Assembly: GCA_964497435.1 (NCBI GenBank)
Contig: CAZCCD010000005.1
Location: forward strand, 46,214 to 107,440
Origin: Candidatus Woesearchaeota archaeon
GTDB taxonomy: Archaea > Nanobdellota > Nanobdellia > Pacearchaeales > GW2011-AR1
Direction of reading: 5' to 3'
Length of the DNA: 61,227 nt
Positions 19,491 through 36,698 of this stretch are shown here, piece after piece; within the stretch, counting starts at the first letter, position 1, and each line of letters opens with the position of its first letter. The notes under the pieces are model-generated. The model made no database searches and was not told where the DNA came from. It saw only the letters and a program-made list of their open reading frames with translations. The position numbers and the translations under genes are program-made.

Positions 19491-19673
19491 TTGGCCAAAA
19501 AATATAGCATCAAAAAATTCCTGCTGGAAATTCCAGAAGAAATCTGGGAAAAATGGAAAGAAACTGTTCCAAGAGCTATTTCTTTAAATGAAGCATTAAT
19601 AGAGATGATTAAAAGAGAGGGAAAGAATTTACCTCTGTCCAAGCGCGGCCAGAGAAGAGGGAGTAAAAAATGA
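19491..19673 (+). CDS. small ribbon-helix-helix-like protein
   Basis: 60 aa with beta-alpha-alpha pattern KKFLLEIPEEIWEKWKETVPRAISLNEALIEMIKRE. ATGA overlap with the first gene of the surface cluster. Confidence 0.4.
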   Translation: MAKKYSIKKFLLEIPEEIWEKWKETVPRAISLNEALIEMIKREGKNLPLSKRGQRRGSKK

Positions 19674-20443
19674 TAAATAAAAACAATAAAGGCCAGGTAG
19701 CAATGTTTATAATAGTAGGGATTATGATAGTTTCAATAGTAATAATATTTATTTTATTGAGGAATGTTTCAAAGCCTGATTTGAGTTTAAGTCCTGACAA
19801 AAATCCAAATGCTTTTTTATCAAGCTGTTATAAAGACAACGTTGAAAAAAGTGTTGATTTACTGATGAAAAATGGCGGCTATATAAATCCGCCTTTATAC
19901 TTAGATTTTGAATTTGAAAATGAGGATGTTTCAAGGATTTCTTATCTTTGTTATTATGAAAACTATAATATGCCTTGTGTTAATCAAGAGCCAATGTTTA
20001 TACAACATTTAAAAGATGAAATAAAAAATTATATTAAAGACGATGTAAAAAATTGTTTTGATAATTTAGGGGTCAGCCTTGAAAATGATGGGTATGTTGT
20101 TCAGGCAGTTTATAGAGGATTTGATATTTCTCTAGATGAAAAGGGAGTGTCTATTGATATTATTGGGGAATTAACACTTACTAAATCAGGGGAAACTGGC
20201 AAGGAAACTGGTTTTGGAACAAGAATTTCATCTAATCTTTATAATTTAGCAATTGTTTCACAAAGAATAGTAAACGATGAAGTTAGAAATTGTGATTTTG
20301 ATTACATAAATTATATGACTATTTATCCTGAATATGACATAGACAAAGTGATAACTCTAGATAAGACTAAGATTTATACAATTAAACAGGCAGATTCTGA
20401 AGAATTCTTTAGATTTGCTGTAAGAGGATGTGTCTATGGTTAA
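19670..20443 (+). CDS. pilin-like protein (class III signal-like N-terminus), paralog of 23544-24308
   Basis: MINKNNKGQVAMFIIVGIMIVSIVIIF, then a globular Cys-containing domain collinear with the 23544 protein (SC..D......L...GG......YLCY......C..Q.P). Confidence 0.55.
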   Translation: MINKNNKGQVAMFIIVGIMIVSIVIIFILLRNVSKPDLSLSPDKNPNAFLSSCYKDNVEKSVDLLMKNGGYINPPLYLDFEFENEDVSRISYLCYYENYNMPCVNQEPMFIQHLKDEIKNYIKDDVKNCFDNLGVSLENDGYVVQAVYRGFDISLDEKGVSIDIIGELTLTKSGETGKETGFGTRISSNLYNLAIVSQRIVNDEVRNCDFDYINYMTIYPEYDIDKVITLDKTKIYTIKQADSEEFFRFAVRGCVYG

Positions 20444-23400
20444 TGTAAAATTTTTATTGAGCATATTTATCTTGATTTCTTTAATAGGAATTACAGATTC
20501 TGTTTTATTGCAAACTGGTTGCTGTGAAAAAACAACAAAAAATGCATGGTGCCAAGATGGGCCTGTTGACTGTGCTTCTGGATACAGAACAAATTCAAAT
20601 ATTTGCGAGGAAACAAATTTTTGTCAGACAGGATATTGCTATGATGTAAGTGAGGGAATATGTGAATCTGGCTCTACAAGCAAAAGATGTGATGAAAAAG
20701 GAGGCCAATTTTTCAGGAATTATGATGAACAATTATGTCAGGAAGGATGTTGTTATCGTGGAAAAAACACTGATTATGTAACTGAATCAAGATGCAATAT
20801 ATTGGCTAAAAGAGCAAGCTTTCCTGATCCTGTATGGGATTCATCAGTTTCTGAAGAAGCGTGTAGATTTTTAAGTGAAGAAGAAGGAGCTTGCGTTATT
20901 GATGAAAGATGTATATTCACGACTGAAAAAGAATGTGTAGAAATGTTTAATGGAGAAATTAATCTTGGAAGATTTTGTTCTGACTTAAACAACGATTATG
21001 AAAAAAAAGATCATAAAGAGTGTTATAACGGAGATGTTTATTGGTATGATTCTGGAGGAAACAGGGAAAATGTAGCTGAGGATTGTGTAGAAGGAGAATC
21101 CATATGCAAGCTGCAAGGAGGAGATTATACTTGCAAGGATATAACTTGTTTTGATGAAAAAAATGACAAAATAAGAAAACATGGAGAGAGTTGGTGTGAA
21201 TATGAAGGATATATAGGAGAAAGTAGATCCTTAGTAGGAAGTGAGCAATGCAAATTAGCCTGTGTCAATGGAGAGATAGAAGTTGAGTGCAGTGATAAAA
21301 GAACAAAATTATGCGCTGAAAATATAACTAATGGAAAATCTAATGCTGTAATGAGAAACAATCTTGCCATGGATTGCTTTAATATAAAGTATTATGACGA
21401 ATGCAACAATCACCCTGATTGTAAATATACTTCTTTTTTTACTGCTGGTTGGTTTAATGTCGGAATGTGTGTTCCAAAATATCCTCTTGGTATTGATTTT
21501 AAATCTGAAAATCCTAAGTATAATGGAGAGAACATATGTGCTTTAGGAAATTTAAGATGTTGGGTTGCAGTAAAACCAGGATTTCCTGATCCTAGAGATT
21601 ATAATATTGGAGAATGGACTGCTAATATTGAATGCACTGGCCCTGAATTTATAAGAGATATGAATTATCTTTGCACTTCTATTGGAGATTGTGGAATGGA
21701 GATAAATTATGTTGGAGTCAAAACAACAAATTATCAGACAATTGATAATATGTGGCAGGGGGTAAATTACAGGGTAATGGAACCTTATGATGAAGGATTC
21801 TCTGGAGGATTACATGAAGTGTGCGAAGATTATGTCAAAAGAGTTCTTAGAGGAGATGAAGGAGGTTCTTGGAAAGAATGGTATTTTTGGTTATGTAGGC
21901 AATATTTAAACGCTAATATTGGATTACCATCAACCTGGGATACCGGAGTTCCAGCATATTGGAATGTCAGTGATTTTCTAAAAAAAGAAAATCCTCAAGA
22001 TGTTCTTCCAGAATATTTCTTGACAAATAGAAATCCAAGTTTTTTAGGAACTAAGTACATAAATGTTATATACAAACCACAAGAATGGGACAAGATTTTA
22101 GCTATAGACTTTAGATGCAACCCATGGCAGCCTCCTTTTGGAGGAAGAGACTGCAACAAATGTAATGAAGGAGATATTCCTTGCAATGATTACAGATGCA
22201 ATGCTCTCGGACAAACATGCAAAATATTAGATGACACGAGATATAGTGAAAATCCTATATGCATAAGTGAAATTCCTCCAGAATTTAGAGCTCCTGAAAT
22301 AACATTTAAAGAATCTCCTGGATATAAAGGAGAGGAATTTGTAAATGGAGTAAAAATAACAAATCTAGATGGCAGTTGCATTGAAAAGCATAGCGATATA
22401 TCTATTGTCCTTGAAACAGATGAAAGAGCTAAATGTGCATTTGTATTAAATTCAAGCGAGCTTCTTCAGGCATTAGAAAATGAAAAAAGATATAACACAA
22501 CCCATCAAATAGATATTAGATTAAGTTTTGATGATAGATTGAGGATTTACACTTCTTGCCAGGATGTTTATGGAACCAGAAATACTGCAGAATATGTAAC
22601 TGATATCTGCATAAGTCCTGAAGCAGATAATAAAGAGCCAGGAATAGAAAGGTTTGAACCAGAAGATGGAAGCTTTATTCCTTTAGAGCAGACAAACCTA
22701 TCTCTAAATATTATTTTAAAAGAGCCTGCTGAATGCAAATATGAGAGATTCCCTTTCTCTTCTTATGATGAAATGACAGGTTTAATGTCTTGCAATAAAG
22801 ACCAAGAAGGATATGTAGAAAGATTTTGTTTAACAACTCTTGAGGGTTTAGACCAGGATGAAAATAAGATTTATATAAAATGCAGAGATTTAGCTGGAAA
22901 TACAAATATAGAAGATAAAATTTACACTGTTTACGCAACAAAAGAGCCATTATTAATCGAGGCTGTTTCTCCTTTAAATGGAGAAATATTAAAAAGGCCT
23001 GTAAACAGGGAAAATCCTCTTGACCTTGAAATAAAAACTTCTGGAGGAGCCTATAATGGAAATGCAGAATGTGGCTATGTTTTTGTTGAGCAAGGATGGA
23101 GTGATAATGATTTGCCTACAGAAACAGGAACAATTTCTCATAAATACAGATTCACTAACTTAGAAGAAGGGAGTTATAATGTTAAGGTTTCGTGCAATGA
23201 TAAAGCAGGAAATACAGCAGAAACAATAATCAGTTTTTCAATAGAGGTTGATGAAACACCTCCTAAAGTCGTAAGAGTATTCAAAGATGGCTCGAGATTA
23301 AAGATAATAACTGATGAAGAAGCAAGATGTTATTATAATAATATAAATGCCTGCACACCTTTTGAATTAGATGAAAGAGGGACTATGACACAAGGAACTT

Positions 23401-23519
23401 CATCCTTTTCAAAAAACCATTCTGCAAATTGGGATGAAAGTAAGACTTATTATATAAAGTGCAAAGACCAATTTGGTAATTCAAATAACGGATGTGCAAT
23501 AATTGTAAAACCAAGCTAA
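20430..23519 (+). CDS. giant Cys-rich secreted protein (1029 aa) with C-terminal beta-sandwich repeats
   Basis: Signal or anchor, CCEKTTKNAWCQ, dozens of Cys, CNKCNEGDIPCNDYRCNALGQTC, and repeated ..Y.KC.D..GN.. modules. Its N half is paralogous to 24590 and its C half to 27182+28343. Confidence 0.7.
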   Translation: MSMVNVKFLLSIFILISLIGITDSVLLQTGCCEKTTKNAWCQDGPVDCASGYRTNSNICEETNFCQTGYCYDVSEGICESGSTSKRCDEKGGQFFRNYDEQLCQEGCCYRGKNTDYVTESRCNILAKRASFPDPVWDSSVSEEACRFLSEEEGACVIDERCIFTTEKECVEMFNGEINLGRFCSDLNNDYEKKDHKECYNGDVYWYDSGGNRENVAEDCVEGESICKLQGGDYTCKDITCFDEKNDKIRKHGESWCEYEGYIGESRSLVGSEQCKLACVNGEIEVECSDKRTKLCAENITNGKSNAVMRNNLAMDCFNIKYYDECNNHPDCKYTSFFTAGWFNVGMCVPKYPLGIDFKSENPKYNGENICALGNLRCWVAVKPGFPDPRDYNIGEWTANIECTGPEFIRDMNYLCTSIGDCGMEINYVGVKTTNYQTIDNMWQGVNYRVMEPYDEGFSGGLHEVCEDYVKRVLRGDEGGSWKEWYFWLCRQYLNANIGLPSTWDTGVPAYWNVSDFLKKENPQDVLPEYFLTNRNPSFLGTKYINVIYKPQEWDKILAIDFRCNPWQPPFGGRDCNKCNEGDIPCNDYRCNALGQTCKILDDTRYSENPICISEIPPEFRAPEITFKESPGYKGEEFVNGVKITNLDGSCIEKHSDISIVLETDERAKCAFVLNSSELLQALENEKRYNTTHQIDIRLSFDDRLRIYTSCQDVYGTRNTAEYVTDICISPEADNKEPGIERFEPEDGSFIPLEQTNLSLNIILKEPAECKYERFPFSSYDEMTGLMSCNKDQEGYVERFCLTTLEGLDQDENKIYIKCRDLAGNTNIEDKIYTVYATKEPLLIEAVSPLNGEILKRPVNRENPLDLEIKTSGGAYNGNAECGYVFVEQGWSDNDLPTETGTISHKYRFTNLEEGSYNVKVSCNDKAGNTAETIISFSIEVDETPPKVVRVFKDGSRLKIITDEEARCYYNNINACTPFELDERGTMTQGTSSFSKNHSANWDESKTYYIKCKDQFGNSNNGCAIIVKPS

Positions 23520-23543
23520 ATTTATAAACATGCAACGCTTAAG

Positions 23544-24308
23544 ATGGATATGAAAAAAGATGTGAAGGGGCAGACAACAATTTTTATAATAATAGGAATA
23601 ATAATCGTTGCATTAGCTGTCTTAATTTATTTTTTATATCCAAAAATAAGAACTGGAGTTGGAGGAGTTGAAAATCCATACACTTTTATACAAAGCTGTT
23701 TGGAAGATAAAATTACTGATGTTGTTGACATTTTATCTTTAACAGGCGGAAGTGTTTCTCCTGTGCATTATATAATTTACAACGGAGAAAAAATAGAGTA
23801 TCTTTGTTATACAAATGAATATTATAAGACTTGTGTAATGCAGCAGCCATTCTTAAAAGAGCATATAGAAGAGGAAATTAGAAAAGAAATAAACATAGAG
23901 AGTGGAAAATGCTTTGACAATTTAAAGAAAAGTTATGAAAACAAAGGTTATAGTATTGAGCTAAGAAGAGGCTCTATGGCTGTTGAATTACTGCCAAAGA
24001 GAATAGTGGTAAATTTCAATAATACAATGACTGCAACGAAAGACAGCACAGAAAAATATGAATCATTTAGAGTGATTGTGAACAACAATCTTTATGAATT
24101 TGTAAGTATAGCTAATAGCATATTAAATTGGGAAGCAAGATACGGTGATGCTGAAACAACTCTTTATATGACATATTATAAGGATTTGAAAGTTGAAAAA
24201 AAAGTCCAGGAAGACGGCTCGACAATATATATTTTAACTGACAGAAACAATGGAAATAAATTTCAGTTTGCATCAAGGAGTGTTGCATGGCCTCCAGGAT
24301 ATGGATAA
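23544..24308 (+). CDS. pilin-like protein (class III signal-like N-terminus), paralog of 19670-20443
   Basis: MDMKKDVKGQTTIFIIIGIIIVALAVLIYF. Collinear similarity to the 19670 protein. Confidence 0.55.
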   Translation: MDMKKDVKGQTTIFIIIGIIIVALAVLIYFLYPKIRTGVGGVENPYTFIQSCLEDKITDVVDILSLTGGSVSPVHYIIYNGEKIEYLCYTNEYYKTCVMQQPFLKEHIEEEIRKEINIESGKCFDNLKKSYENKGYSIELRRGSMAVELLPKRIVVNFNNTMTATKDSTEKYESFRVIVNNNLYEFVSIANSILNWEARYGDAETTLYMTYYKDLKVEKKVQEDGSTIYILTDRNNGNKFQFASRSVAWPPGYG

Positions 24309-24615
24309 GATGAAAAATATAGAAATGAAAGTTGGCGTTCCTCTATTGATTGTAATAGGTTTTGGAGGATATACTATTGGGGGGGGTTTTGGATCAAGAG
24401 GAACAAATAAAGTTTACGAATTTAGTTACTTAGAAAAACCTGCCGCGATTGTTAAAGAAGATATAAAATTAGGGCCAGATAGATATTATGCTATATTAGA
24501 TAATGGAGATATAATAAGAACAGAGATAACTAGTGATGAAGGTAATAAAATTAGCTTTACAGGATTATTTGGATCTGAGTATTACATAAATGGAGTTAGA
24601 CAAGATGATAAATAA
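24301..24615 (+). CDS. small single-TM protein
   Basis: In-frame ATG at 24301 overlaps the upstream stop (ATGGATAA). VGVPLLIVIGFGGYTIGGGF TM segment. Confidence 0.4.
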   Translation: MDKMKNIEMKVGVPLLIVIGFGGYTIGGGFGSRGTNKVYEFSYLEKPAAIVKEDIKLGPDRYYAILDNGDIIRTEITSDEGNKISFTGLFGSEYYINGVRQDDK

Positions 24616-26296
24616 AAAAATAATTTTAATGCTGATGCTTGTAATCTTTTTAATTGGCCTTGTCAATGTCCAAAAAGTAAATGCTGTCGGCGAAGTCTCT
24701 TTCTGCTGTGAGAAAACAAAAGCAGGGGCTTATTGTTTAAATGCCCCTGAAAATGAATGCGACACTTCAATAGATCCTGTTACAAAAAATGCTTATAGAA
24801 AAGTTCCGACAAACTGCGAGGCAACTAATTACTGCAAGCTTGGAACATGTATAAATTCAAGGCAAGGAATTTGCATGGAAAACACTCCTTTAAGAATATG
24901 TGATAATACTAAAGGATTATGGAAGCCAGAAGAGCCTGAAGAAATCCCTCAATGTGCATTAGGATGCTGTTTAATTGGAGATCAGGCAGCTTTTGTCACA
25001 CAAACAAGATGTAAAACTCTTTCTTCTCAATATGGACTTGAGATTAATTTTAGAGCAGATATAACTGATGAAGCAGAATGCATTGCTGCAGCATCTTCGA
25101 GTGTAAAGGGAGCTTGTGTTTTTGACAAAGAGTTTGAAAGGACCTGTAAAATATTAAGCCAGAAAGAATGCAAAAAATTAGAAGGAAGTGTTGAGAATGT
25201 TGAATTTCACGATGGGTTTTTATGCACTGCAGAAGAGCTTGCAACTAATTGTGCTCCGACAAAAAAAACAACTTGTATAGAAGGAGGAGATGAAGTCTTT
25301 TTCCTCGATTCATGTGGGAATTTAGCTAATATATATGACTCAACAAAATATGAAAATGATAGGCCAGACAGAGAATACTGGACAAGGATTAAAGATAAAG
25401 GTGAAAGCTGCAATCCAAATTCTCCAAATGGAAATGCTGGCTCTGCCTCATGCGGAAACTGTGATTATCTTCTTGGAAGTGTTTGTAAAAAATATGACAG
25501 AACAGAAGATATAACAAATCCTAAATTAGGAAATAATATTTGTAGAGATTTATCCTGTAATTATGAAGGAAATAGATATGAACATGGAGAAACCTGGTGT
25601 GCAACAAATGGTGTAGAAAATGTTCCTGGAAGCGAGAGTTTCAGGCTTGTTTGCTATGCTAATGAAGTGACTATAGAGCCGTGCGCTGCATTTAGAGGAG
25701 AGAGATGCATCCAAGACAATGAAAGAGGATTTAGTTTTGCTGCGTGCAGGGTAAACAGATGGAGAGATTGTATTGCACAAACAACAGAAAAAAATTGTTT
25801 GAATGAAGATAAAAGAGATTGTCAATGGATAAATTCTGGAAATTTAAGGGCTGATTTAAACGAGGAAAAAACTAAAGAGCTTGCAGAGAAATTAAGTGAT
25901 GCTGCAAAAGATGGAGATATTTATGAGCCAAGCCAATATTATCAGTTTGTCTGTGTCCCAAAATATTCTCCTGGTTATGATTTTTGGCAGGCTGAAAGCG
26001 ACGCTGTTGATATCTGTTCCCTAGGAAATGCTCAAGGAAAAGTATTTTACAAGGCAGATAATGTTTTTGACACTCCCGACCAAAACCTAGAAGATTGTGA
26101 CCAAGGATGTTATTTCATATCAGATAAAGGAGTCTGGAGCCAGGATGCGTTCAATTGGGTCGCTCAAAAAAATAATCTCTGTATTAATCTAGGAGATTGC
26201 GGGGACAAGAATAATTTCCTTGATGTGTTTGGATTTAATCATGGAGAAGATCCTGTGACTTGTGATGGAGATCCAGAAGCATGTGAATGGAAATAA
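24590..26296 (+). CDS. Cys-rich secreted protein, paralog of the N-terminal half of 20430-23519
   Basis: Signal peptide and FCCEKTKAGAYC. Collinear blocks (HGETWC, CVPKYSPGYDF, NLGDCG). The start may be the ATG at 24605. Confidence 0.7.
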   Translation: MELDKMINKKIILMLMLVIFLIGLVNVQKVNAVGEVSFCCEKTKAGAYCLNAPENECDTSIDPVTKNAYRKVPTNCEATNYCKLGTCINSRQGICMENTPLRICDNTKGLWKPEEPEEIPQCALGCCLIGDQAAFVTQTRCKTLSSQYGLEINFRADITDEAECIAAASSSVKGACVFDKEFERTCKILSQKECKKLEGSVENVEFHDGFLCTAEELATNCAPTKKTTCIEGGDEVFFLDSCGNLANIYDSTKYENDRPDREYWTRIKDKGESCNPNSPNGNAGSASCGNCDYLLGSVCKKYDRTEDITNPKLGNNICRDLSCNYEGNRYEHGETWCATNGVENVPGSESFRLVCYANEVTIEPCAAFRGERCIQDNERGFSFAACRVNRWRDCIAQTTEKNCLNEDKRDCQWINSGNLRADLNEEKTKELAEKLSDAAKDGDIYEPSQYYQFVCVPKYSPGYDFWQAESDAVDICSLGNAQGKVFYKADNVFDTPDQNLEDCDQGCYFISDKGVWSQDAFNWVAQKNNLCINLGDCGDKNNFLDVFGFNHGEDPVTCDGDPEACEWK

Positions 26297-26419: not shown

Positions 26420-27172
26420 ATGGTAAAAAACTTAGCAAGATTGGTTGGGGCAGGATTTTTAGTTGGAAGTAGTTTTCTTCCAGCTTATGCTGATGAAAAG
26501 GAAAAAAAAGCTGATGAAAAAATATTTCAAGGAACTATTATTGAATGGGGTGGAAGGCAAAAATCAGGAAAACTTGGTAGATTATTCGAAATAGGTGGAG
26601 GTTTGTTAAGAGGACAAGGAGAAAGAGAGCATGAAAGAATTGTTGCTCGTGAAAGTGCTGATAAAACTAACCTAATTATTGTAAATGGAAAATATTATCC
26701 TGCTCCTGGTTATGATTGGGCTGATAAAAATGATCCAGATAATTATGAGGTTGTAAGAGAAATTACTAACGAAAAAAATATTCCAAGAGATGACCTTAAT
26801 CCTACAAGTATAATAAAACATTTTGCTTGCAGTAGATGGGATGATAATGGAAATAATATTCCTAGTTTAGATGAGTTTAAAGAAAGAAAACTTGTGTTTA
26901 GAAGAGGTGAACCTATAATAATTGCAGCTTCAATTGAATCAGAAAGTGCAAGAGGAAAAAAAATAACAGCAAAGATATATTCTTCAAGAGGGCAAATAGC
27001 AGATCAGGACTGGACAATAATAGGAAATCCTTTTTGTGCGACACTTGGTCATGAAAATAGTTACGACTTTTCTGCTTGGTTGTTTGATAGAGGAGGAGCT
27101 GGCGAGTATCAAGTAAGATGGTGGTATAAAGGAGATATAATAGGGCTAACAGATTTCACAATAACAGAGTAA
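26420..27172 (+). CDS. secreted hypothetical protein
   Basis: Signal peptide LVGAGFLVGSSFLPAYA. 250 aa. No recognised domain. Confidence 0.55.
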   Translation: MVKNLARLVGAGFLVGSSFLPAYADEKEKKADEKIFQGTIIEWGGRQKSGKLGRLFEIGGGLLRGQGEREHERIVARESADKTNLIIVNGKYYPAPGYDWADKNDPDNYEVVREITNEKNIPRDDLNPTSIIKHFACSRWDDNGNNIPSLDEFKERKLVFRRGEPIIIAASIESESARGKKITAKIYSSRGQIADQDWTIIGNPFCATLGHENSYDFSAWLFDRGGAGEYQVRWWYKGDIIGLTDFTITE

Positions 27173-27181
27173 AAACTTAAA

Positions 27182-28321
27182 ATGCAAAAAAAAGTGGTGA
27201 AGAAAAAAAGAGAAAGTGAACTTTCTACTAGCTCGCCTAGACGTAGTCAAGCTAAAGGGATGGTGATAAGCCAGTTAATGATTTTATTAATTGGAATTTT
27301 TGCATTTGCATACATTCTTAGTGAGATAAACTTAGTGGGTGCGGTAGGTGAAGAAGGAGAAGATGAACCTCCTGCTGAAAAACCTGCTCCTTCTACAACA
27401 TTTAATCCTGTGCCTTTTGTTTTTACTCTTAAAGGTGTTGAAAAAATTACACCTAACCAAAAAATAATCAGTGAGGCAGGAAAGGCTGTTGGAGAAAGTG
27501 CAGTAGAAGAATCTGCAAAATTCGGCTTTAAAACAATACTTAAAAATGCAGCAGTTGCATCAACAATATTCTTTGCTATACAACTTCTTGGTCCTTTAAT
27601 AACAAGCGATAGGGGAGCAATAAACATTATATCAACAGCAGCCTCAATAGGATATTTTACAGCAAGCACTTTATCTGCAAAAGCTGTGGCTGCAAAACTG
27701 CCTGGATTTTTAGGAGATAAGACAGGAGTTCTAGGTTTAACATGGGGGGCTGCGATTATAACTATAGGAGTTATTGCAGTCATTGTAATCTGGGGGTTTA
27801 AGAAAACAGCTGAAGAAACTGTTCAGTATTCTTGTTTTGTCTGGGATGCTCCTCTCGGAGGAAATGATTGTGATAAATGCAATCAAGGAAGTCTTCCTTG
27901 CACAGAATACATGTGCAAAAGTCTAGGACAAAGCTGCGAGTTAATAAATAAAGGAACAGGAGAAGAAAAATGTGTCTGGCTGAATAAAGACGATGTAAGG
28001 CCTCCTGAAATAAGGCCATGGAATGATGCTTTATTAAATAGCGACTATAAATATAAAGAAGATACAGCAATCTCTCCTCCAGACAGAGGAGTATTTATAA
28101 GATATAAAGAAGGTTGTATCCAGGCTTTTACACCTTTCAAATTTGGAATAACATTAGATGAACCTGCAAGATGCAAGATAAGTCCTGATAGAAAAAGAAC
28201 ATTCGATGAGATGTCTTTAAGTTTCGGAGGAAGCAGCACAGCAAAATACAATCACAGCATGGAAATTGTTTTGCCAAGCAAAGAGTCTTTAGAAGCTGAA
28301 AATATAACTCTTCAAAATTGA
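27182..28321 (+). CDS. membrane/Cys-knot part of a split paralog of 20430-23519 (ends at an in-frame TGA)
   Basis: AKGMVISQLMILLIGIFAF, three more TM segments, then CDKCNQGSLPCTEYMCKSLGQSC matching CNKCNEGDIPCNDYRCNALGQTC. Same frame as 28343-29362. Confidence 0.6.
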   Translation: MQKKVVKKKRESELSTSSPRRSQAKGMVISQLMILLIGIFAFAYILSEINLVGAVGEEGEDEPPAEKPAPSTTFNPVPFVFTLKGVEKITPNQKIISEAGKAVGESAVEESAKFGFKTILKNAAVASTIFFAIQLLGPLITSDRGAINIISTAASIGYFTASTLSAKAVAAKLPGFLGDKTGVLGLTWGAAIITIGVIAVIVIWGFKKTAEETVQYSCFVWDAPLGGNDCDKCNQGSLPCTEYMCKSLGQSCELINKGTGEEKCVWLNKDDVRPPEIRPWNDALLNSDYKYKEDTAISPPDRGVFIRYKEGCIQAFTPFKFGITLDEPARCKISPDRKRTFDEMSLSFGGSSTAKYNHSMEIVLPSKESLEAENITLQN

Positions 28322-28342
28322 GGATTATTTAATTTATATGTT

Positions 28343-29362
28343 ATGTGCCAGGATTCTAATGGAAATCCTAAAGGAGATTCTCCTTCAGCAAGTTTTGTCT
28401 TTAAGTATTGTGTCGATGACAGCCCTGACACACAAGCTCCAAAGATATTAGGGACAAACATTAATACAAATTCACCAATAGCATTCAATACTAGCTCAGT
28501 AAAAATAGAGCTTTACACAGACGAGCCTGCTGAATGTAGATGGAATAGAGATAGGGATGCGAGTTTTGGTTCAATGGAAGGAACAATGTCATGTAACTTA
28601 AGAGTATTTGACATGAATGCACAAAACACTTACAAATGCACAGCAACTTTAAGTGGCTTACAAGACAAGCAAGACAACAACTTTTATTTTAGATGTAAGG
28701 ACAAGCCATTAGAAAAAGATGAAAAAAAGAGATATGAAAACTCTCAAGGATATAAATTAACATTAATAGGAACACAGCCATTAGTAATAAACAAGATTGA
28801 GCCAGAAGGAATTGTCAAAGGCTCATCTGATTTAATTAAAGTTACATTGAAGGCAGAGACATCGGCGGGATATAAAGAAGGAGAGGCAATATGTTTTTAC
28901 AGCGAATCTTGTTTTGATGTATCGGGAAGCAAGACAGACTACACTTCTTTCTTTTATCCTGATAATAAATTCACCCATACACATAGCCAGGATATTTATT
29001 TAGAAGAGGGAACATATCAATGCTCTATAAAATGTGAGGATCTTGGAGGAAACGCTGATACTAAAGAAACAAGTTATACAGTTGAAATAGATGAATCAAC
29101 TCCAAAAGTCATAAGGGCATACAAAGTCGGATCCAGACTAGAAATTATAACTGATGAAGAAGCTGCCTGTGTTTACAGTCTACAAAGCTGTAGTTATTTA
29201 TTTGATGACGGGGTTAAAATAAACACCTTTGACAAGAAAGTGCATTCTCTTGAATGGGACACTACAAGGACTTATTATATAAAGTGTATGGATGAATTCA
29301 CGAACGAGCCTTTCCCTGATCAATGTTCAATAATAATAAGGGCGAGTGAAGATTTTGAATGA
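28343..29362 (+). CDS. beta-sandwich repeat part of the split paralog (continuation of 27182-28321)
   Basis: C-terminus PKVIRAYKVGSRLEIITDEEAACVY...YYIKCMDEFTN aligns with PKVVRVFKDGSRLKIITDEEARCYY...YYIKCKDQFGN of the 1029-aa protein. Confidence 0.6.
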   Translation: MCQDSNGNPKGDSPSASFVFKYCVDDSPDTQAPKILGTNINTNSPIAFNTSSVKIELYTDEPAECRWNRDRDASFGSMEGTMSCNLRVFDMNAQNTYKCTATLSGLQDKQDNNFYFRCKDKPLEKDEKKRYENSQGYKLTLIGTQPLVINKIEPEGIVKGSSDLIKVTLKAETSAGYKEGEAICFYSESCFDVSGSKTDYTSFFYPDNKFTHTHSQDIYLEEGTYQCSIKCEDLGGNADTKETSYTVEIDESTPKVIRAYKVGSRLEIITDEEAACVYSLQSCSYLFDDGVKINTFDKKVHSLEWDTTRTYYIKCMDEFTNEPFPDQCSIIIRASEDFE

Positions 29363-29591: not shown

Positions 29592-30041
29592 ATGTTAAAA
29601 AAGAGTAAAAGGGGCGAGATGCACATTTCTTTCGGAATGTTGTTTTCAATAATATTGATTATTGCTTTCATCGCATTTGCATTTTACGCAATAAAAACTT
29701 TCTTAGGAGTCCAGGGCACAGCTCAATTAGCAAAATTCAGGGAAAATCTCCAGGAAGATGTTGATGAGTTATGGAGAGCCAGTCGAGGAAGCCAGAAAAT
29801 GCCTTATTCTCTTCCTAAAAAAGTGGAACAAGTCTGTTTTCAAAAAGGAAATTACGAAAATTTAATTTTTCTACCCATAGAATCAGCAGAAGGCTTGAGT
29901 CCTAAGAGCATAGAGCATATTGACATTGACATCATAACATTAAGAGAGAATCCTTATTGTATAGATGTTGTTAATGGAAAGTTTGAATTAGTCTTAAAAA
30001 AAGATTTTGGTGAGGAATTAGTTACAATAACGAGGGCTTAA
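29592..30041 (+). CDS. pilin-like/N-terminally anchored small protein
   Basis: The ATG at 29592 gives MLKKSKRGEMHISFGMLFSIILIIAFIAFAFYAI. The ORF-track start at 29553 is TTG. Confidence 0.45.
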   Translation: MLKKSKRGEMHISFGMLFSIILIIAFIAFAFYAIKTFLGVQGTAQLAKFRENLQEDVDELWRASRGSQKMPYSLPKKVEQVCFQKGNYENLIFLPIESAEGLSPKSIEHIDIDIITLRENPYCIDVVNGKFELVLKKDFGEELVTITRA

Positions 30042-30080
30042 GAAATAAGAATATTTAAAGTGTAATCTATTATTTTTTAT

Positions 30081-33000
30081 ATGAAAAAGAGGATGAGTAA
30101 AAATCAAAAGTTAGTTATATTGTTTCTATCTGTGATTATTATTGTTGAATTGATTCTTCTAAGTGAATTTACAGGATTTGCTATTAGCCAATTAAATAAA
30201 AAAACAATTGTATTAGAAGAAGAAAAAATTCTGCCGGTTCAAAGCACCTGCACAGACACAGACAAAGGAATAAATATTTACATTGAAGGAACTACTTGTG
30301 ATGGCGGAGCTGGTGGTGGACTTCCTTGTTATAGGGATGAATGTAATGGTGATTATATTTTGGAATATTATTGTGAAGATGGTATAACTAAGGGTGACTG
30401 GTTTGAATGTTCATCAGGAATGTGTAGTAATGGTGCATGCTTTATTGATCCAGATAGAGCTTACTACATAAGTTTAGTGGTAGCAGAACAAGATGGGGGT
30501 GCTACAATACGAGTTGATGATTCTACAAAAGAGATTTCTTTAGGAGGAACAAAAACTATTGATTACTTACCAATAACCCTAACAAGAGCTAAAGAATACA
30601 TTGATCATTATGAAGCAACAATCAATGTAAATTTAGTTTTCTCGCAGGATAAAAATTACATCCAACTACATTCATCTTTTCCAAGAAAGTGGTATGAATT
30701 TAACTTATTAGATGTTTCTGAAGAAAATCAAAGCGCGACTTTTAGGATTAAAACTTATGATGGAGAGGATGTAATTAAGGAGATTAGTTTTGGGTCGGAA
30801 AACTTAGGAAACTTAAGTTTGATTTTAAAAAATCCAGTGTATAAAAATGACTCTCAAATGATTGCAGATATTTTAGTTGAAAATTTGGAATTAATTTCTT
30901 ATGCTAATTGTTTTGACACAGATGGACTTAACTATACAAATAAGGGAAATATTTATGGGAACTACACAGACGGATCTCCATTCAGCTTATTTGATTACTG
31001 TGATGGAGATTTGTTAGTGGAACAAACATGTGAATTGGGACAACCATATTTTAGAGGCTTGAATTGTGCAAATTATGGTTCTTCCTGTGTTAATGGAGCA
31101 TGTCTGCCTTTTAATGGAACATGCATTGAATCAGATTCAGGCATTGATTATTTTAATTATGGAAACAATTATGGGTATTATTCTAATTTAAGCTTCTATG
31201 ACTTAAATGATTATTGCCTTAATAATAACACTATTAATGAGTTTTATTGCCCTAGTAACTTTAGCGAGGTAAAAAATGTTTTATTTAATTGCAGTGATAT
31301 AAATGCAACATGTGATGGGGGTTATAAAAGATGTATATTAAATTTGAAAAGTTGCACAGATTCTGATGGATATGATCCTATTGTCTTTGGTTATATTTAT
31401 GGAATTCGTAGTAATTCTTCATCTTTCCAGTATAATGATACTTGTGTGGATAATTCTAGCGTTATAGAGTATTGGTGTAGTTCGAAAGACTCTTACCCTA
31501 TTTCAAGTGAAAGAAGTTGTAAGTTATATTTAGGAAATTCAAATGCAAGCTGTATTAATGGAGCATGTGTCCCATCTTGTAGAGCTGCTAGTGATTTATC
31601 TGGCGAACAATATGTTTATGGTAGTTACTCTAATGGCACATCTTTCAAAATTTATGACGAATGTATTGATAATGAAACTCTAAGACGTGTTAAATGTGAT
31701 GCAAATGGTTATTATGGTGAACCTTTTTTTGAAGAGTATAATTGTTTAGCAAATGAGTTTGATGGTTGTGTTTCCAACAAATGTATTAATATATGTTATA
31801 AAGATAAAGATTGTAGTCCCTTAGAAGGATATTACTGCAGTGGAAATAAAGTATTTGCCAACACTAGCAGAAGATGTGTTAATCCTGGAACTATTAATTC
31901 TTATTGTGAAGATGTTATTGGAACAACTCTTGTTAATGATTGTGGCACAAACAGTCAGTGTGTTGATGGAATAAAATGTTGCCAGAAAGAGCCAGAAAAA
32001 TTTTTCCCTATAGGATTATGGATGTTTAATAAAACAAACTTTAGTGTTGCTTTAGATCTTAATGTTAACACTATTTTGCCAATTAAATATAATATTGAAA
32101 GCAATATTCTGTTTAATAAACTCCTTGACGATGCAAATAAAAAAAGTATTAAAGTATTTGGAAATAGTCCTTGGTATGGTTGGTTTATTGATGATGTTAT
32201 TAGAAAAGTTAAAGTAAATTCTGTCTGTGGATACAACTCTTTTTCAAGATATATTGTTATGGATGAACCTTACCCTGAAGAGTTAGATGGTTTAAAAAGA
32301 GCTTATGAAAGAATTAAGTTCTATGACAAACAACACCCTGCTTATACAACTGTTCATTTACCATGGATTTTTGAAGATTTTGTAGAAACAGTTCAGCCAA
32401 ATGAATTAGATATCCATAATTTTCCAATACAGCCAGAAACACCTTATCCAGATGAAGACTCTTATGAATACGATAAAGCAATTAATGAATACGGAATTGT
32501 TTTATCCCAAGCTAGAGACATTACTCTTAGACACAATATTCCATTATGGGCAACAACCCAGTCATTTGTTTACCAAAACGAAGATAATACTCAAAGAGAT
32601 ATGTTGTTAAGCGAGGCCAGATTATTAAATTACATGCCTCTTGCATATGGCTCAAAAGGAATTTCTCATTTTATTGATTATTCTTATCCAGAGTCTGGAA
32701 GAGTTGTCTCAGCTTTAATAGATATAAACGGACAAAAAACACAAAGATATTACGAAATAAAAGAATTTAATAGAAAATTAAAGAAAATTGCACCAATTCT
32801 CCTAGAGTTAAACTCGACTGGAGCTTGTAATTCAAGATTTATTAATTATTTTCCAAATCAAGCTAATATTATAATAAATCCTAGTTTTGAAACAACAACA
32901 CCAACATCGATTGATGGATGGAATGGAGATCCTAATTTAGTTATAGCTAATGGAGCAACCATTGGAGGATGTAATTCTGGAAGCAAATGCTCTAAAGCAA

Positions 33001-33989
33001 TAAGAGCTAATTGGGGCTTTCATCAAATAATTTCAGGAATGCAACCAGACACTTATTACGAACTAAGTTACAGTTTAAAAGAGGGGCCAATAGAAACAAT
33101 TCCCAGAGTTCATATTTATTCGTCTACAGGAGAATCAATCATTGGTTGTTCTTCTAATCCTGAAGACTCGTGGAAAAGAGTTTCTTGTGTATTTAGGACT
33201 CCTTTTACTCTAACTGGAAATCCTGTAATGTATGTTATTAGTGGAACAGACCCTTTTGATTCTAATGAATTTAACTATGTAGATGACATTGATTTAAGAA
33301 AAATAAATCCATTTGGAGGAGGATGTAACATTTCTTCAATAACTGAAGTAAGTGGAAATCTTGAAATTGGAACTTTTATAGATGTTAATAATGATAATTA
33401 CATAATGGTTGTTAATAGAGACACTTTAAATCCTATTACAACTGATTTGACATTAAGTGTTGATCTCTCAAAATATAATAATCCTTATTTAATTGATTTA
33501 ATAACTGGAGAAATAGGACAATTAAATAAAGGTTCGTCGCAGATAACTATTTCTAAATCTTTAGAATCTGGTGAGGGGAAAGTTTTCAAAATTGGAGATG
33601 TTTTGTGTGGAGATAATAATTTTGATGGTCGTTTAAGTGCAGCTGATGTACTTTACTTAGTAAATTTTATATTTAAAGGTGGTCAAGATCTAATAATTCC
33701 GTCTGTTGCAGATGTTAATGGAGATGGTGTTATTTCTGCTGCAGATATCATTTATCTCGTGAACTATCTCTTTAAAACAGGTTCTGCGCCAACATGCTCC
33801 TTAGGAAATAGTGTTTCAACACAAACAACATATTCTCAAAGTGAATTACAAGATTATGAAAACAAATTAAAAGAAGTAGGAATAGATATTGACTTAACTA
33901 CTAAATCTCAAACCCAAATAGAACAAACTCAAGAAGAATCGCAAAATATCTTAGAGAAGTTTTGGAATTTTGTGAAAGAGATTTTTTAA
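30081..33989 (+). CDS. giant secreted protein: five Cys-rich modules, TIM-barrel glycoside-hydrolase-like region, CBM-like domain, C-terminal dockerin
   Basis: Five C.D[ST]DG...C...L.E..C...C.NGAC modules. NPSFETTTPTSIDGWNGD (CBM4/9-like). Dockerin repeats DGRLSAADVLYLVNFIF and DVNGDGVISAADIIYLVNYLF (about 33600-33800). Confidence 0.7.
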   Translation: MKKRMSKNQKLVILFLSVIIIVELILLSEFTGFAISQLNKKTIVLEEEKILPVQSTCTDTDKGINIYIEGTTCDGGAGGGLPCYRDECNGDYILEYYCEDGITKGDWFECSSGMCSNGACFIDPDRAYYISLVVAEQDGGATIRVDDSTKEISLGGTKTIDYLPITLTRAKEYIDHYEATINVNLVFSQDKNYIQLHSSFPRKWYEFNLLDVSEENQSATFRIKTYDGEDVIKEISFGSENLGNLSLILKNPVYKNDSQMIADILVENLELISYANCFDTDGLNYTNKGNIYGNYTDGSPFSLFDYCDGDLLVEQTCELGQPYFRGLNCANYGSSCVNGACLPFNGTCIESDSGIDYFNYGNNYGYYSNLSFYDLNDYCLNNNTINEFYCPSNFSEVKNVLFNCSDINATCDGGYKRCILNLKSCTDSDGYDPIVFGYIYGIRSNSSSFQYNDTCVDNSSVIEYWCSSKDSYPISSERSCKLYLGNSNASCINGACVPSCRAASDLSGEQYVYGSYSNGTSFKIYDECIDNETLRRVKCDANGYYGEPFFEEYNCLANEFDGCVSNKCINICYKDKDCSPLEGYYCSGNKVFANTSRRCVNPGTINSYCEDVIGTTLVNDCGTNSQCVDGIKCCQKEPEKFFPIGLWMFNKTNFSVALDLNVNTILPIKYNIESNILFNKLLDDANKKSIKVFGNSPWYGWFIDDVIRKVKVNSVCGYNSFSRYIVMDEPYPEELDGLKRAYERIKFYDKQHPAYTTVHLPWIFEDFVETVQPNELDIHNFPIQPETPYPDEDSYEYDKAINEYGIVLSQARDITLRHNIPLWATTQSFVYQNEDNTQRDMLLSEARLLNYMPLAYGSKGISHFIDYSYPESGRVVSALIDINGQKTQRYYEIKEFNRKLKKIAPILLELNSTGACNSRFINYFPNQANIIINPSFETTTPTSIDGWNGDPNLVIANGATIGGCNSGSKCSKAIRANWGFHQIISGMQPDTYYELSYSLKEGPIETIPRVHIYSSTGESIIGCSSNPEDSWKRVSCVFRTPFTLTGNPVMYVISGTDPFDSNEFNYVDDIDLRKINPFGGGCNISSITEVSGNLEIGTFIDVNNDNYIMVVNRDTLNPITTDLTLSVDLSKYNNPYLIDLITGEIGQLNKGSSQITISKSLESGEGKVFKIGDVLCGDNNFDGRLSAADVLYLVNFIFKGGQDLIIPSVADVNGDGVISAADIIYLVNYLFKTGSAPTCSLGNSVSTQTTYSQSELQDYENKLKEVGIDIDLTTKSQTQIEQTQEESQNILEKFWNFVKEIF

Positions 33990-34023
33990 ATAATTTTAAA
34001 TAAGCTATCTGCTTCTTTTATTC

Positions 34024-34941
34024 ATGAGGAAAAAGAGTGGCTTCATAGATATATCATTCAACTGGATATTTTCTTTAATTGTCGGAGCTTTCATATTATT
34101 CATGGCTATATTCATAGCCGTAAAAATAACAAACATAGAAAGAGTTAGTCAAGGCGCTCAAACAAGCAAAGACATAGGGATTTTATTAAGCCCATTAGAA
34201 ACAGGATTTGAAACATCGATAGCAACAACATTAATACTTCCTTCTGAAACAATAATTCAAACTGATTGTAATGAATTCGGGAATTTTGGAAACCAGATAA
34301 TAAAAACATTTCAAAAAAAACCTCTTAATTCAAACCAGGTTTCTGTCTCTTTCCAGAATAAATACATAATGTCAGAGAAAACCATTGAAGGAAAGAATTT
34401 TTACGTGTTTTCTATGCCTTTCAATTTTCCTTTTAAGGTTGCTAGCTTAACATATTTAATTCCTGTTAATAAAGAGTATTGTTTTGTTAAAGCTCCTGAA
34501 AATATAATAAAAGAGTTGAATGATTTAGAAATAAATAATATTCTAAATTCAACAAGGGCCGGAGATTGTAATGAAGATAGTGTAAGTGTCTGCTTTCAAG
34601 GAGCAGGCGGCTGTTCTATTAATGTTAGAAGTGATTATATTGAAAAAAACAATAAAAGAGTTTATTTTGAGGGCAATGAATTGATGTATGCCTCTATTTT
34701 TTCAGACCCTGATATTTATGAATGCCAGCTTGTAAGATTAATGAAAAGAACAAGTAAATTAACATCTTTATATGAGGATAAAGCTGTTTTCATAGCTCAA
34801 AAATGTAATACAAATATTAATTTTGATGAATTTAAGGCTCTTGTAGACAGCTTTGAAAACTCTCAAGACTTAAACAATTTAGAAGTAGAATCTTCAATTT
34901 TAACTAAATCAAATGATGTTGCTAACTGCAAGTTGTGGTGA
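34024..34941 (+). CDS. pilin-like/N-terminally anchored protein
   Basis: MRKKSGFIDISFNWIFSLIVGAFILFMAIFIAV, then a 270-aa ectodomain containing Cys residues. Confidence 0.5.
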   Translation: MRKKSGFIDISFNWIFSLIVGAFILFMAIFIAVKITNIERVSQGAQTSKDIGILLSPLETGFETSIATTLILPSETIIQTDCNEFGNFGNQIIKTFQKKPLNSNQVSVSFQNKYIMSEKTIEGKNFYVFSMPFNFPFKVASLTYLIPVNKEYCFVKAPENIIKELNDLEINNILNSTRAGDCNEDSVSVCFQGAGGCSINVRSDYIEKNNKRVYFEGNELMYASIFSDPDIYECQLVRLMKRTSKLTSLYEDKAVFIAQKCNTNINFDEFKALVDSFENSQDLNNLEVESSILTKSNDVANCKLW

Positions 34942-34944
34942 ACA

Positions 34945-35310
34945 ATGTCAAATGATAATGGATTAGTTGATGAATATGAAAAGCTGCAGACATTAAAGAA
35001 CGAAATAAATGAGAAAATTGAGAATATGAAAAAAGAAATTATTAATCTGGCAGAACAAAAGAACACTAACATTCTCTTTGGTTCTAATAAAAAATGTTCA
35101 ATAAAAGAATACTTTAAAGTGATTTATCCTGATGATAAAACTAAAATAATTGAGCTTGTTAAAAGAAAAGGCCTTTATGAAATGTTTTCTTCTATTAATT
35201 ATCTAAAGTTAGGTTCAGCAATAGTTAAAGGAGCAGTTGATTATGATATTCAAAATTTAGTTAAAAAAGAAAAAGCCTTTAGGCTTTCTTTGTTAGATAT
35301 TCAAAAATGA
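34945..35310 (+). CDS. soluble coiled-coil hypothetical protein
   Basis: 121 aa with no TM segment. Starts 3 nt after the upstream stop and has an ATGA overlap downstream. Confidence 0.45.
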   Translation: MSNDNGLVDEYEKLQTLKNEINEKIENMKKEIINLAEQKNTNILFGSNKKCSIKEYFKVIYPDDKTKIIELVKRKGLYEMFSSINYLKLGSAIVKGAVDYDIQNLVKKEKAFRLSLLDIQK

Positions 35311-35861
35311 AAACAATAAAAAATCAGAGATTTTTTCATCCTTCGTTTTTTCCAAAAACGAGAAAATCGCAGATGAAAATACAGCAGACAGCATTCATGT
35401 TAATAGCTGTTACTTTACTTTTTGTACTTGTTGGATTGTTTTTTTTGAGTGTAAGGCTTTCTGAACTTAAAAGAGGAGCATCTGAACTTGAGGAGAAAAA
35501 TGCCAAGCTCCTTATTACAAGATTGGCTGACTCTCCAGAATTTAATTGCGATAGCTCTAATTTAAGAGTAGGGTGTGTTGATGCAGATAAAGTAATGACG
35601 TTGAAAGAAAGAATAAATGAATATGCTAATTTTTGGGGAGTTTCAGGGATAGAGATAAGGAAAATATATCCAAAATCAAGCCAGGACATAAAATGTACTC
35701 TCTCTAATTATCCTAATTGCAATATAATTGAGGTAAAAAAAGGCCAAGGAACATTTGTTGGAAATTTTGTGAGTTTATGCAGGAAAGAGGTTTATGAAGG
35801 AGATGTTTATGATAAATGTGAGATAGCTTTATTGCAGGTTAGTTATGAAGCGAAAACATAA
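35307..35861 (+). CDS. pilin-like/N-terminally anchored protein
   Basis: KTRKSQMKIQQTAFMLIAVTLLFVLVGLFFL. Confidence 0.5.
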   Translation: MKTIKNQRFFHPSFFPKTRKSQMKIQQTAFMLIAVTLLFVLVGLFFLSVRLSELKRGASELEEKNAKLLITRLADSPEFNCDSSNLRVGCVDADKVMTLKERINEYANFWGVSGIEIRKIYPKSSQDIKCTLSNYPNCNIIEVKKGQGTFVGNFVSLCRKEVYEGDVYDKCEIALLQVSYEAKT

Positions 35862-36348
35862 AATGCTAAAAAAAATTAAATCTGGACAGGAAGAGCTAGT
35901 AGGGTTTGGAATCATAATTGTTATCTTAGCAGTCATAATGCTTTTCTTTCTTTGGTTCTTTATTTCAAAGCAAGATAATAGTGTGAAAAGCTATGAAGTT
36001 GAAAGTTTTCTTCATTCAACCTTACAGTTTACTAGTGAATGTAGGCACTACAGGGAAGGCTATCTTGATATTAATGATTTGATATTTGAATGTGAGAATG
36101 AATTTACATGTTTAAATGGGGAATATAGCTGTGAAGTATTAAATTCAACTATCTCAGGCATTTTAAAGGAAAGCTATATTATAAGAGGGAATAGTCCTGT
36201 AAAGGGTTATAAATTAGAGATAAATATAGAAAATAATGTGTTATTAAACATAAAATCTGGGAACGAAACAGGCAATTCAAGAGGTGCATACCAAGAAATA
36301 CCTGAAAGAGGGGATGTAGCTATTATGTCTTTCAATATCTATACCTAG
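35845..36348 (+). CDS. pilin-like/N-terminally anchored protein
   Basis: KKIKSGQEELVGFGIIIVILAVIMLFFLWF. Overlaps the upstream gene by 17 nt. Confidence 0.5.
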   Translation: MKRKHKMLKKIKSGQEELVGFGIIIVILAVIMLFFLWFFISKQDNSVKSYEVESFLHSTLQFTSECRHYREGYLDINDLIFECENEFTCLNGEYSCEVLNSTISGILKESYIIRGNSPVKGYKLEINIENNVLLNIKSGNETGNSRGAYQEIPERGDVAIMSFNIYT

Positions 36349-36698
36349 ACTTTGAAATGAATAGTAAGTGTATCTACAGAAATAACAGGTCTAAGCCTCT
36401 TCCTTTCCTTTGTCTTTTCCTCTATAAAGTCTATGAACCCGAACCTTTCAAGCAGGTTAAGGTCATCTTTTACTGTTTTAAAGCCTCTGCCAAGTTTCTT
36501 TGCAAGCTCATAAATTGACTTGGGTTTTTCTTGTTTTATAACATGGAGAATCCTGGCCTTTTCATTGTTTAAAAGTTGCCTTAAAGCCAAAAGACTCTCA
36601 AAATCATAGTTTTCTTTAGGAGAATCTTTCTTAGAAAATAAAGAGAACATTCCTTTTGATTCTTCTATTGTCACTTCTCTTATTTTTACCCTTGTCAT
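36345..36698 (-). CDS. winged-helix transcriptional regulator
   Basis: KPKSIYELAKKLGRGFKTVKDDLNLLERFGFIDF. Convergent with the surface cluster and divergent from the S-layer gene. Confidence 0.55.
   Translation of the reverse strand: MTRVKIREVTIEESKGMFSLFSKKDSPKENYDFESLLALRQLLNNEKARILHVIKQEKPKSIYELAKKLGRGFKTVKDDLNLLERFGFIDFIEEKTKERKRLRPVISVDTLTIHFKV

Follow-up and report, generated by a model that had tools for sequence, protein, structure and literature searches.

We analyzed a stretch of 61,227 nucleotides from Candidatus Woesearchaeota archaeon (GenBank assembly GCA_964497435.1, contig CAZCCD010000005.1, positions 46,214 to 107,440), hereafter called the window, with a focus on a cluster of genes encoding pilin-like and cysteine-rich proteins. 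The window is archaeal chromosomal DNA with a GC content of about 31% and carries genes for primase, PCNA, FtsZ, ribosomal proteins, and aspartyl-tRNA synthetase. Between positions 19491 and 36348, 15 listed open reading frames (ORFs) follow each other on the plus strand until the run is stopped by a convergent winged-helix gene, and the proteins encoded between 19.5 and 36.3 kb are of the secreted or membrane type. Most junctions in the cluster range from an overlap of 14 bp to a gap of 39 bp, while two measure 123 and 229 bp. The original prediction regarded this 17-kb run as a candidate surface appendage or adhesion system of a DPANN-type cell. The ORFs, coordinates, junction overlaps, and peptide strings that it quoted were all found in the sequence, but it counted 16 plus-strand ORFs where the list holds 15, and these correspond to 14 genes once g08 and g09 are merged (genes are numbered g01 to g17 by position). 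The proposed cell type was likewise supported, since the genome is of the Nanoarchaeota, Pacearchaeota/Woesearchaeota type and homologues come from the same lineage.

A g09-type alignment run against GTDB species representatives identified 323 confirmed stretches. For comparison, 80 loci were retrieved; the related-locus searches span about 80-83 loci (each designated L plus a number) and about 1.1-1.18 Mb. These 80 loci come from metagenome-assembled genomes (MAGs) of Nanoarchaeota, Pacearchaeota, or Woesearchaeota, except for two tiny contigs. The two exceptions, L006 (JALUTR010000404.1, from a Neomarinimicrobiota bin) and L054 (CAZWFM010000422.1, from a Bacteroidales bin), are 1-2 kb long, carry an archaeal g09-type gene at 45-49% identity, and are probably mis-binned. 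Searches by tblastn in the 80 species-level Nanoarchaeota loci delineated a conserved core comprising g04, g06, g08/9, g10, g12, g14, and g15. In relatives, the gene order reads primase (minus strand), PCNA, an optional g02 and g03, the core genes as listed, the winged-helix gene (minus strand), g17, and two anchored proteins. The eight core hits were colinear in 28/28 loci containing all of them, the genes lying together and not scattered. Among these complete loci, 27/28 also had g16 and g17 downstream, and 14/28 had g02 and g03 in addition. The core proteins showed median identities of 40-55%, compared with 64% for PCNA, 60% for primase, and 45% for g17. What did not hold was the view of the whole 17-kb run as one unit, since g01, g05, g07, g11, and g13 are local inserts in this window that are not conserved in related loci and thus fall outside the conserved unit. 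The median gap between g10 and g12 is 15 bp, with just 4/52 loci above 600 bp, and that between g12 and g14 is 36 bp in relatives, whereas the g06-g08 and g09-g10 gaps are variable slots occupied by unrelated small secreted genes. Local duplication also occurs inside the cluster, as indicated by a tandem duplicate of g10 at positions 11087-11988 of L049 and an additional partial g08/g09 copy at 1179-2306 of L071. A mobile element or virus was ruled out as the nature of this region because its GC content is uniform, its chromosomal position between PCNA and an S-layer-like (surface layer-like) gene is conserved, and no integrase-like match was obtained.

A conserved feature of the pilin-like proteins is their N terminus. 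Six families (g02, g04, g10, g12, g14, and g15) share a K-[KR]-[GAS]/Q site before a hydrophobic helix, where the slash marks the predicted cleavage position, and this class III signal layout was found in 40-77 orthologues of each. Position -3 is K in 54-86% of sequences, position -2 is K/R in 77-90%, and position -1 is G/A/S in 99-100%, while position +1 is Q in 100% of the g02, g04, g14, and g15 proteins and in 85% of those of g10 and is replaced by Y/F in g12. The leader upstream of the site varies in length among the six families, from 3 to about 30 residues, and the continuation of the site is family specific, i.e., QVTIFIII in g02/g04, QMKLSFGMIF in g10, YLQISFAWLF in g12, QMKIQQMAFML in g14, and QEEMVGFALII in g15. 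With a site that is near-invariant across orthologues, these six N termini are not ordinary Sec signals. Seven class III signals had been proposed; the six listed here are conserved, but the seventh, AKGMVISQ in g08, is not kept as a class III site among orthologues. The motif is also specific, as [KR][GAS]Q directly before a hydrophobic stretch occurred in 193 of 4168 ORF segments from 1.1 Mb of related loci, with 187 of the 193 belonging to the six pilin-like families. The two conserved anchored neighbors encoded at 40008-40592 and 40896-41546 do not carry a KGQ-type site. In Methanococcus maripaludis, the sites at which the prepilin peptidase EppA processes the Epd pilins were mapped experimentally as KGQV, KGQL, KGQI, and RAQI, and EppA requires a Gln at +1, which FlaK does not accept (PMC4371748). 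Judged by sequence, the pattern of the six families is that of EppA-processed Epd pilins. Past the helix, g10 and g12 are homologous (hhalign 96%, 163 columns) whereas the remaining families have only the helix in common, and homology of this kind between two members is what would be expected for a diversified pilin set.

Considered individually, all of these genes lie on the plus strand and all except g02 belong to the core. The g02 gene (19670-20443; 257 amino acids [aa]; leader MINKNNKG/QVAMFIIVG) forms an optional module with g03, and the signature [KR][GAS]Q[VI]T[IL]F is present in all of its 125 homologues. Its paralogue g04 (23544-24308; 254 aa; leader MDMKKDVKG/QTTIFIIIG) shares 31% identity with it and has orthologues in 48 loci with a median identity of 55%; its sequence logo shows K at -3 in 75%, R/K at -2 in 88%, G/A/S at -1 in 99%, and Q at +1 in 100%. 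The g10 gene (29592-30041; 149 aa from the ATG at 29592; leader MLKKSKRG/EMHISFGMLF) was found in 58 loci with the logo K-[RK]-[GAS]/Q-M-K-L-S-F-G-M-I-F. For g12 (34024-34941; 305 aa; leader MRKKSG/FIDISFNWIF), found in 55 loci, the logo reads K-[KR]-[GA]/[YF]-L-[QE]-I-S-F-x-W-L-F. The g14 protein (35307-35861; 184 aa; site KTRKS/QMKIQQTAFMLIAV, preceded by further residues) was found in 50 loci at a median identity of 53%, with Q at +1, K at +3, and Q at +5 each in 100% of sequences, and its family is further characterized by six invariant Cys. Finally, g15 (35845-36348; 161 aa from the ATG at 35863; leader MLKKIKSG/QEELVGFGIIIV) was found in 46 loci, with Q at +1 in 100%, E at +2 in 95%, E at +3 in 100%, and G and F at +6 and +7 in 100%.

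The pilin-like genes are interleaved with genes for large Cys-rich proteins. The abundance of Cys reported in the large proteins was borne out, with 60 in g03 (5.8%), 43 in g06 (7.6%), and 50 in g11 (3.8%), compared to a mean of 1.49% over all remaining window ORFs together. The g06 gene (24605-26296, plus strand) belongs to the core and encodes a Sec-secreted protein of 563 aa; it was found in 50 loci, and about 40 Cys are invariant in its family. Also part of the core, g08/9 (27182-29362, plus strand) would encode a protein of 726 aa if intact and is present in 81-82 loci. The protein is anchored by its N terminus and contains an acidic linker, a hydrophobic region, and a CDKCNQGSLPCTEYMC motif as well as immunoglobulin-like (Ig-like) modules ending in Y..C.D..GN. 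The third protein, g03 (20430-23519, plus strand; 1029 aa), has a Sec signal and was found in 29 loci. According to BLASTP, its residues 3-435 match g06, residues 559-669 match g08, and residues 710-1029 match g09. From these matches, g03 is a fusion-type paralogue combining a g06-like N-terminal half with the C-terminal two thirds of g08/9, and the cluster can be read as holding two versions of one module, a compact one (g02 and g03) and a split one (g04, g06, and g08/9). The fusion of g06-like and g08/9-like parts in g03 therefore provides sequence-level evidence that g06 and g08/9 may act together. The g03 orthologues in L002, L027, L041, and L050 keep internal hydrophobic segments that are present in g08. 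In addition, one g03 module gave a borderline match to the bacterial Ig-like domain Big_13 (PF19077), with 27.7 bits against a cut-off of 27, while g09 reached 19.9 bits, which is under the cut-off, and the L002 orthologue gave a faint match.

In the window, g08/9 is split into two ORFs (27182-28321 and 28343-29362) that share the same frame and are parted solely by a TGA at 28319-28321. The orthologue is uninterrupted in 78/78 related loci, in which the residue aligned with the TGA is G, D, or N. Moreover, an independent Logan assembly (L087) is identical to the window at 6538/6539 positions (99.985%), and the sole difference is a G for T at 28319 (L087 position 4078), which creates a GGA codon and an intact 726-aa gene. 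Thus, g08 and g09 are one gene, and the TGA is either a strain-level nonsense variant or an assembly error. Recoding of the TGA was rejected because the sibling assembly carries GGA and all 78 relatives have a sense codon for G, D, or N at this position.

The large proteins had not been recognized as members of any named family, and this was upheld for Pfam, NCBIfam, and PDB. Searches of every cluster protein against Pfam and NCBIfam returned only the dockerin, a borderline Ig-like match, and the winged helix; scanning the members of the g02 and g15 families one by one with Pfam gave noise only; and family profiles of g02, g06, g14, and g15 found no relatives among PDB sequences. The cluster families are covered by nothing in these three resources. 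The 125 close homologues of g02 and the 1333 of g06 are all unnamed and without a Pfam domain, and those with a taxon label are assigned to archaeon, Nanoarchaeota, or Pacearchaeota. When the g02-family profile was compared with 1.84 billion representatives, the g02/g04 superfamily amounted to 6301 clusters at 50% identity. A confident AlphaFold2 (AF2) model of g02, built from a 77-sequence alignment with a mean predicted local distance difference test score (pLDDT) of 90.8, comprises a helix at residues 7-32, a disordered segment at 33-43, and a compact alpha/beta domain. The AF2 model of g06 (pLDDT 83.5), likewise confident, consists of small beta modules in which invariant Cys are abundant; Foldseek comparisons of it with PDB and BFVD gave no significant global match and revealed only local likeness, over 46-73 residues, to fibronectin type I and tissue plasminogen activator (tPA) finger modules. 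As far as these libraries show, the modeled ectodomains of g02 and g06 appear to be new at the fold level. No description of this cluster was found in the literature searched.

The window had been said to lack an assembly ATPase, a platform protein, and a prepilin peptidase. This was confirmed, as Pfam detected neither a T2SSE ATPase nor a T2SSF platform nor an A24 peptidase in 46 window ORFs of at least 110 aa, a set that excludes seven ORFs of 110-152 aa outside the cluster. Similarly, in about 80 genomes, no EppA or twin platform genes were present at a distance of up to 10 kb from the cluster, and just three ORFs with at least six transmembrane segments were found in the loci, all outside the cluster. 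Exact matches to the proteins, sought in order to reach past the window, came from short Logan contigs only. Such machinery is reported elsewhere in the lineage, although not by all authors: most Woesearchaeota MAGs have annotated homologues of flaI, flaJ, and flaK, high expression of archaellin is described (PMC11606122, PMC5994134, PMC8407392), and a 2026 census reported an Epd-type System 1 in DPANN (bioRxiv 10.64898/2026.04.22.720090). Pilin loci located apart from the ATPase and served by shared machinery are common in archaea (PMC4858521).

The remaining genes of the run are variable inserts on the plus strand. The first, g01 (19491-19673; 60 aa), is non-core and overlaps g02 by 4 nt; its label as a ribbon-helix-helix gene could not be confirmed, as it matched no Pfam family and gave no tblastn match in 83 related loci at an E value of up to 1. 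The variable gene g05 (24310-24615; 101 aa) encodes an N-terminal hydrophobic segment and is also called as a gene in L088, and it belongs to no Pfam family and had no tblastn match at 1e-5 in related loci. The slot between g06 and g08/9 is occupied by g07 (26420-27172; 250 aa), which has a Sec signal and obtained a single weak match in related loci, where the slot is filled by unrelated small lipoprotein-like genes. Located between g10 and g12, g11 (30081-33989; 1302 aa) encodes a secreted protein that is rich in Cys and carries a type I dockerin, for which PF00404 gave 33.2 bits (cut-off, 22.9; 6.2e-8). The claim that one large protein ends in a dockerin was thus correct as to the domain but not as to its place, which is near the end (residues 1177-1230 of 1302) and not terminal. 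No tblastn match to g11 was obtained in related loci. Its N-terminal repeats form a Cys-rich module of about 70 aa without a Pfam match, and it further contains a stretch with an NPSFE...W motif typical of carbohydrate-binding modules, which likewise had no Pfam match. The last insert, g13 (34945-35310; 121 aa), has neither a signal nor a transmembrane segment and no match in related loci.

Downstream of the run, the convergent gene g16 (36345-36698, minus strand) encodes the winged-helix regulator that had been called from the sequence, and this call was corroborated by a match to PF25212 (HVO_A0114; 67.6 bits against a cut-off of 27.6, 8.6e-19). A second HVO_A0114/MarR-like winged helix, fused to a nucleotidyltransferase domain, is encoded far from the cluster (3970-4569, minus strand). 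The next gene, g17 (37041-39740, plus strand; 899 aa), was found in 41 loci and encodes a secreted, acidic, Thr/Ser/Gly-rich and Cys-poor protein with 13 N-X-S/T sequons and no Pfam or NCBIfam family, which its composition makes a candidate S-layer-like protein. The two N-terminally anchored proteins (40008-40592 and 40896-41546, both plus strand) follow g17 in nearly all complete loci. Further downstream, 43113-44978 (minus strand) encodes a secreted 621-aa protein with CARDB and other Ig-like matches, detected by tblastn in 16 related loci. Upstream of the primase gene, two Sec-signal proteins (12380-13804 and 13841-16174, both minus strand) contain 7.0% and 7.5% Cys, belong to no Pfam family, and are kept in place in the 12-13 related loci that reach that far; BLAST found no relation between them and g03 or g06. 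Given these two further conserved Cys-rich proteins, the conserved envelope island may be larger than the cluster.

Among known systems, the closest likeness is to the Epd pili of M. maripaludis (System 1, with EpdA-E and EppA). These share the [KR]-[GA]/Q-[VIL] site and hydrophobic helix with a near-invariant Gln at +1, they are encoded by several different pilin-like genes in a row, and some of their pilin genes lie away from the ATPase, as in the cluster described here. However, neither sequence nor profile comparisons detected a similarity of the cluster proteins to Epd pilins or to Pfam and NCBIfam pilin models, their globular domains are much larger, Cys-containing, and in g02 predicted to adopt a novel fold, conserved giant Cys-rich partners are present, and the locus has no EppA, ATPase, or twin platform genes. 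In bacteria, the priming and tip complex of minor pilins (FimU-PilVWXE with PilY1) and the pseudopilus tip of type II secretion (GspH-I-J-K) are sets of four to six pilin-like proteins that form a heteromeric stem or tip and not the bulk filament. Their genes are arranged in fixed order, accompanied by one for a large surface protein that is not a pilin, and are often separate from the ATPase operon. The cluster resembles such sets in these respects, but it is archaeal and without homology to them, and its partners are disulfide-rich small-module and Ig-like proteins instead of the PilY1 beta-propeller; the likeness to minor-pilin/PilY1 sets and pseudopilus tips is organizational only and drawn from the genes. 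The Sulfolobus bindosome (sugar-binding proteins with BasEF) likewise places class III-type signals on large non-filament globular proteins encoded in loci without their own ATPase. Unlike the bindosome, the cluster has no substrate-binding-protein domains or nearby ATP-binding cassette (ABC) transporter, shows a Q at +1 of the site, and belongs to a different lineage. With cohesin-dockerin systems, g11 shares the type I dockerin, but no cohesin was detected in the cluster and g11 is a rare insert outside the conserved unit. Pacearchaeota-specific modules of unannotated membrane-bound or extracellular families, e.g., Module 222, were described by Castelle et al. 2021 (PMC8204110). Compared by description only, the cluster families fit this lineage-specific, unannotated, and membrane-bound or extracellular type, although that study lists families only, without a class III site, gene order, or link to pilins.

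Taken together, we tentatively interpret the core as a lineage-wide minor-pilin-like set that has disulfide-rich partners and depends on machinery encoded at other sites in the genome; we give this reading somewhat less than an even chance. We favor it because the processing site is conserved in six families, equals the EppA sites, and is specific to these families, and because colinearity is strict, g03 is a fusion paralogue, machinery is reported in the lineage, and unlinked pilin loci are common; the operon-like packing, in which most junctions overlap or are no wider than 39 bp, also supports it. In this scheme, the six preproteins would be inserted in the membrane, where an EppA/PibD-type peptidase encoded elsewhere would cut the basic leader between [G/A/S] and Q. 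The mature N-terminal helices would then assemble, in the manner of minor pilins or pseudopilins in bacteria, a short stem or tip made of different subunits, for which a type IV filament ATPase and platform encoded elsewhere would serve as the base. The Sec-secreted g06 and the anchored, Ig-like g08/9 would join g04 and each other to form the exposed distal part. As seen in the sequences, the slots between core genes take lineage-specific secreted proteins, here g07 and g11. The resulting structure, possibly a pilus with a role in adhesion, might serve for host-cell or surface contact, at or through an S-layer whose candidate gene, g17, adjoins the core.

Several findings weigh against this interpretation, and many of them favor its main rival, in which the proteins are class III processed but form no filament, the helix-anchored proteins together with g06 and g08/9 building a fixed complex in the envelope by which the S-layer would be supported, anchored, or perforated. 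We consider this unlikely on balance but a serious alternative. In the g02 model, the helix is tied to the globular domain by a disordered 11-residue linker, unlike a pilin helix packed on its head, which amounts to a flexible tether bearing a compact non-pilin domain, and Foldseek found no match to it in PDB at E≤0.001 (best E of 1.8e-3, TM score of 0.12-0.22). Curated N-terminal models of pilins and archaellins (Pfam Pilin_N and Class_IIIsignal and the NCBIfam archaeal flagellin N-terminal domain) gave no match at their thresholds, with Pilin_N matching just 2/77 g02-family members at an E value of 0.05, and no convincing candidate for a short Epd-like major pilin was found in the window. 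A dedicated ATPase or platform was linked in none of about 80 genomes; neither a T2SSE signature nor a Walker-A variant was found by regular expressions in the window and 83 loci, and no A24-like polytopic ORF was found in the window or in the related loci, which add up to 1.18 Mb and reach up to 10 kb from the cluster in about 80 genomes. Type IV pilus components were also reported as absent from DPANN genomes by He et al. (bioRxiv 10.1101/2020.05.14.094862). In favor of a fixed complex, the winged-helix and S-layer-like genes follow the core in 27/28 complete loci, conservation is as broad as for a housekeeping envelope component (core identities of 40-55% against 64% for PCNA), and class III signals are known on non-filament proteins such as those of the bindosome (bioRxiv 10.64898/2026.04.22.720090). 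However, adjacency of genes is not function, the S-layer identity of g17 is based on composition only, and a fixed succession of five to six different pilin-like proteins is closer to a minor-pilin set than to anchored binding proteins.

Two other explanations are less likely. The cluster could encode a pseudopilus-type device, comparable to the pseudopilus of type II secretion, whose short piston or stem pushes or presents the large Cys-rich proteins across the S-layer, along with variable cargo like the dockerin protein. Five to six pilin-like genes interleaved with large Sec-signal proteins, variable cargo slots within the cluster, and a mechanism in which no major filament pilin is needed would all suit such a device, but no ATPase or platform is linked and we know of no pseudopilus-type secretion or display system in archaea. 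Furthermore, the Cys-rich partners are as conserved and position-fixed as the pilin-like genes and therefore fit better as structural partners than as cargo, which leaves this proposal improbable. It is equally doubtful that the six proteins are ordinary type II signal-anchored proteins accompanied by secreted ones, with a K-K/R-G-Q motif unrelated to prepilin peptidases and no filament machinery. The unmatched curated pilin families, the non-pilin g02 model, the lack of linked machinery, and the published claim that DPANN lack type IV pilus components (bioRxiv 10.1101/2020.05.14.094862) are all compatible with plain anchors. Nonetheless, the positive-inside rule accounts for the K/R residues but does not explain why a small residue is invariant at -1, followed by Gln at +1, in six families whose ectodomains are unrelated, the site is identical to the EppA sites, and the conserved anchored neighbors do not carry the motif.

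Among uncultivated archaea, Pacearchaeota and Woesearchaeota rank with the most abundant; they have minimal genomes, and their lineage-specific proteins have been described as unannotated families of the membrane or extracellular type only (PMC8204110). Pacearchaeota appear to be unusually firmly attached to their hosts (He et al., bioRxiv 10.1101/2020.05.14.094862). Of a genome measuring about 0.7-1 Mb (PMC8407392), 10-17 kb belong to the cluster, whose order is kept in dozens of species and whose families amount to thousands of sequence clusters. We regard it as a good candidate for an undescribed cell-surface or attachment structure. The EppA-type prepilin site in six proteins offers a testable handle, namely, a peptidase, mature N termini, and a defined set of proteins. 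If the minor-pilin-like reading is correct, archaeal systems related to type IV filaments would be extended to new pilin families and new partner proteins. A bolder and rather improbable view is that the cluster encodes a new surface organelle defining Pacearchaeota/Woesearchaeota, in which processed novel-fold proteins and giant disulfide-rich partners would mediate host contact, integrated with the S-layer and assembled without a dedicated ATPase or by borrowing the archaellum machinery. If this were true, the cluster would be the long-sought attachment apparatus of these uncultivated episymbionts.

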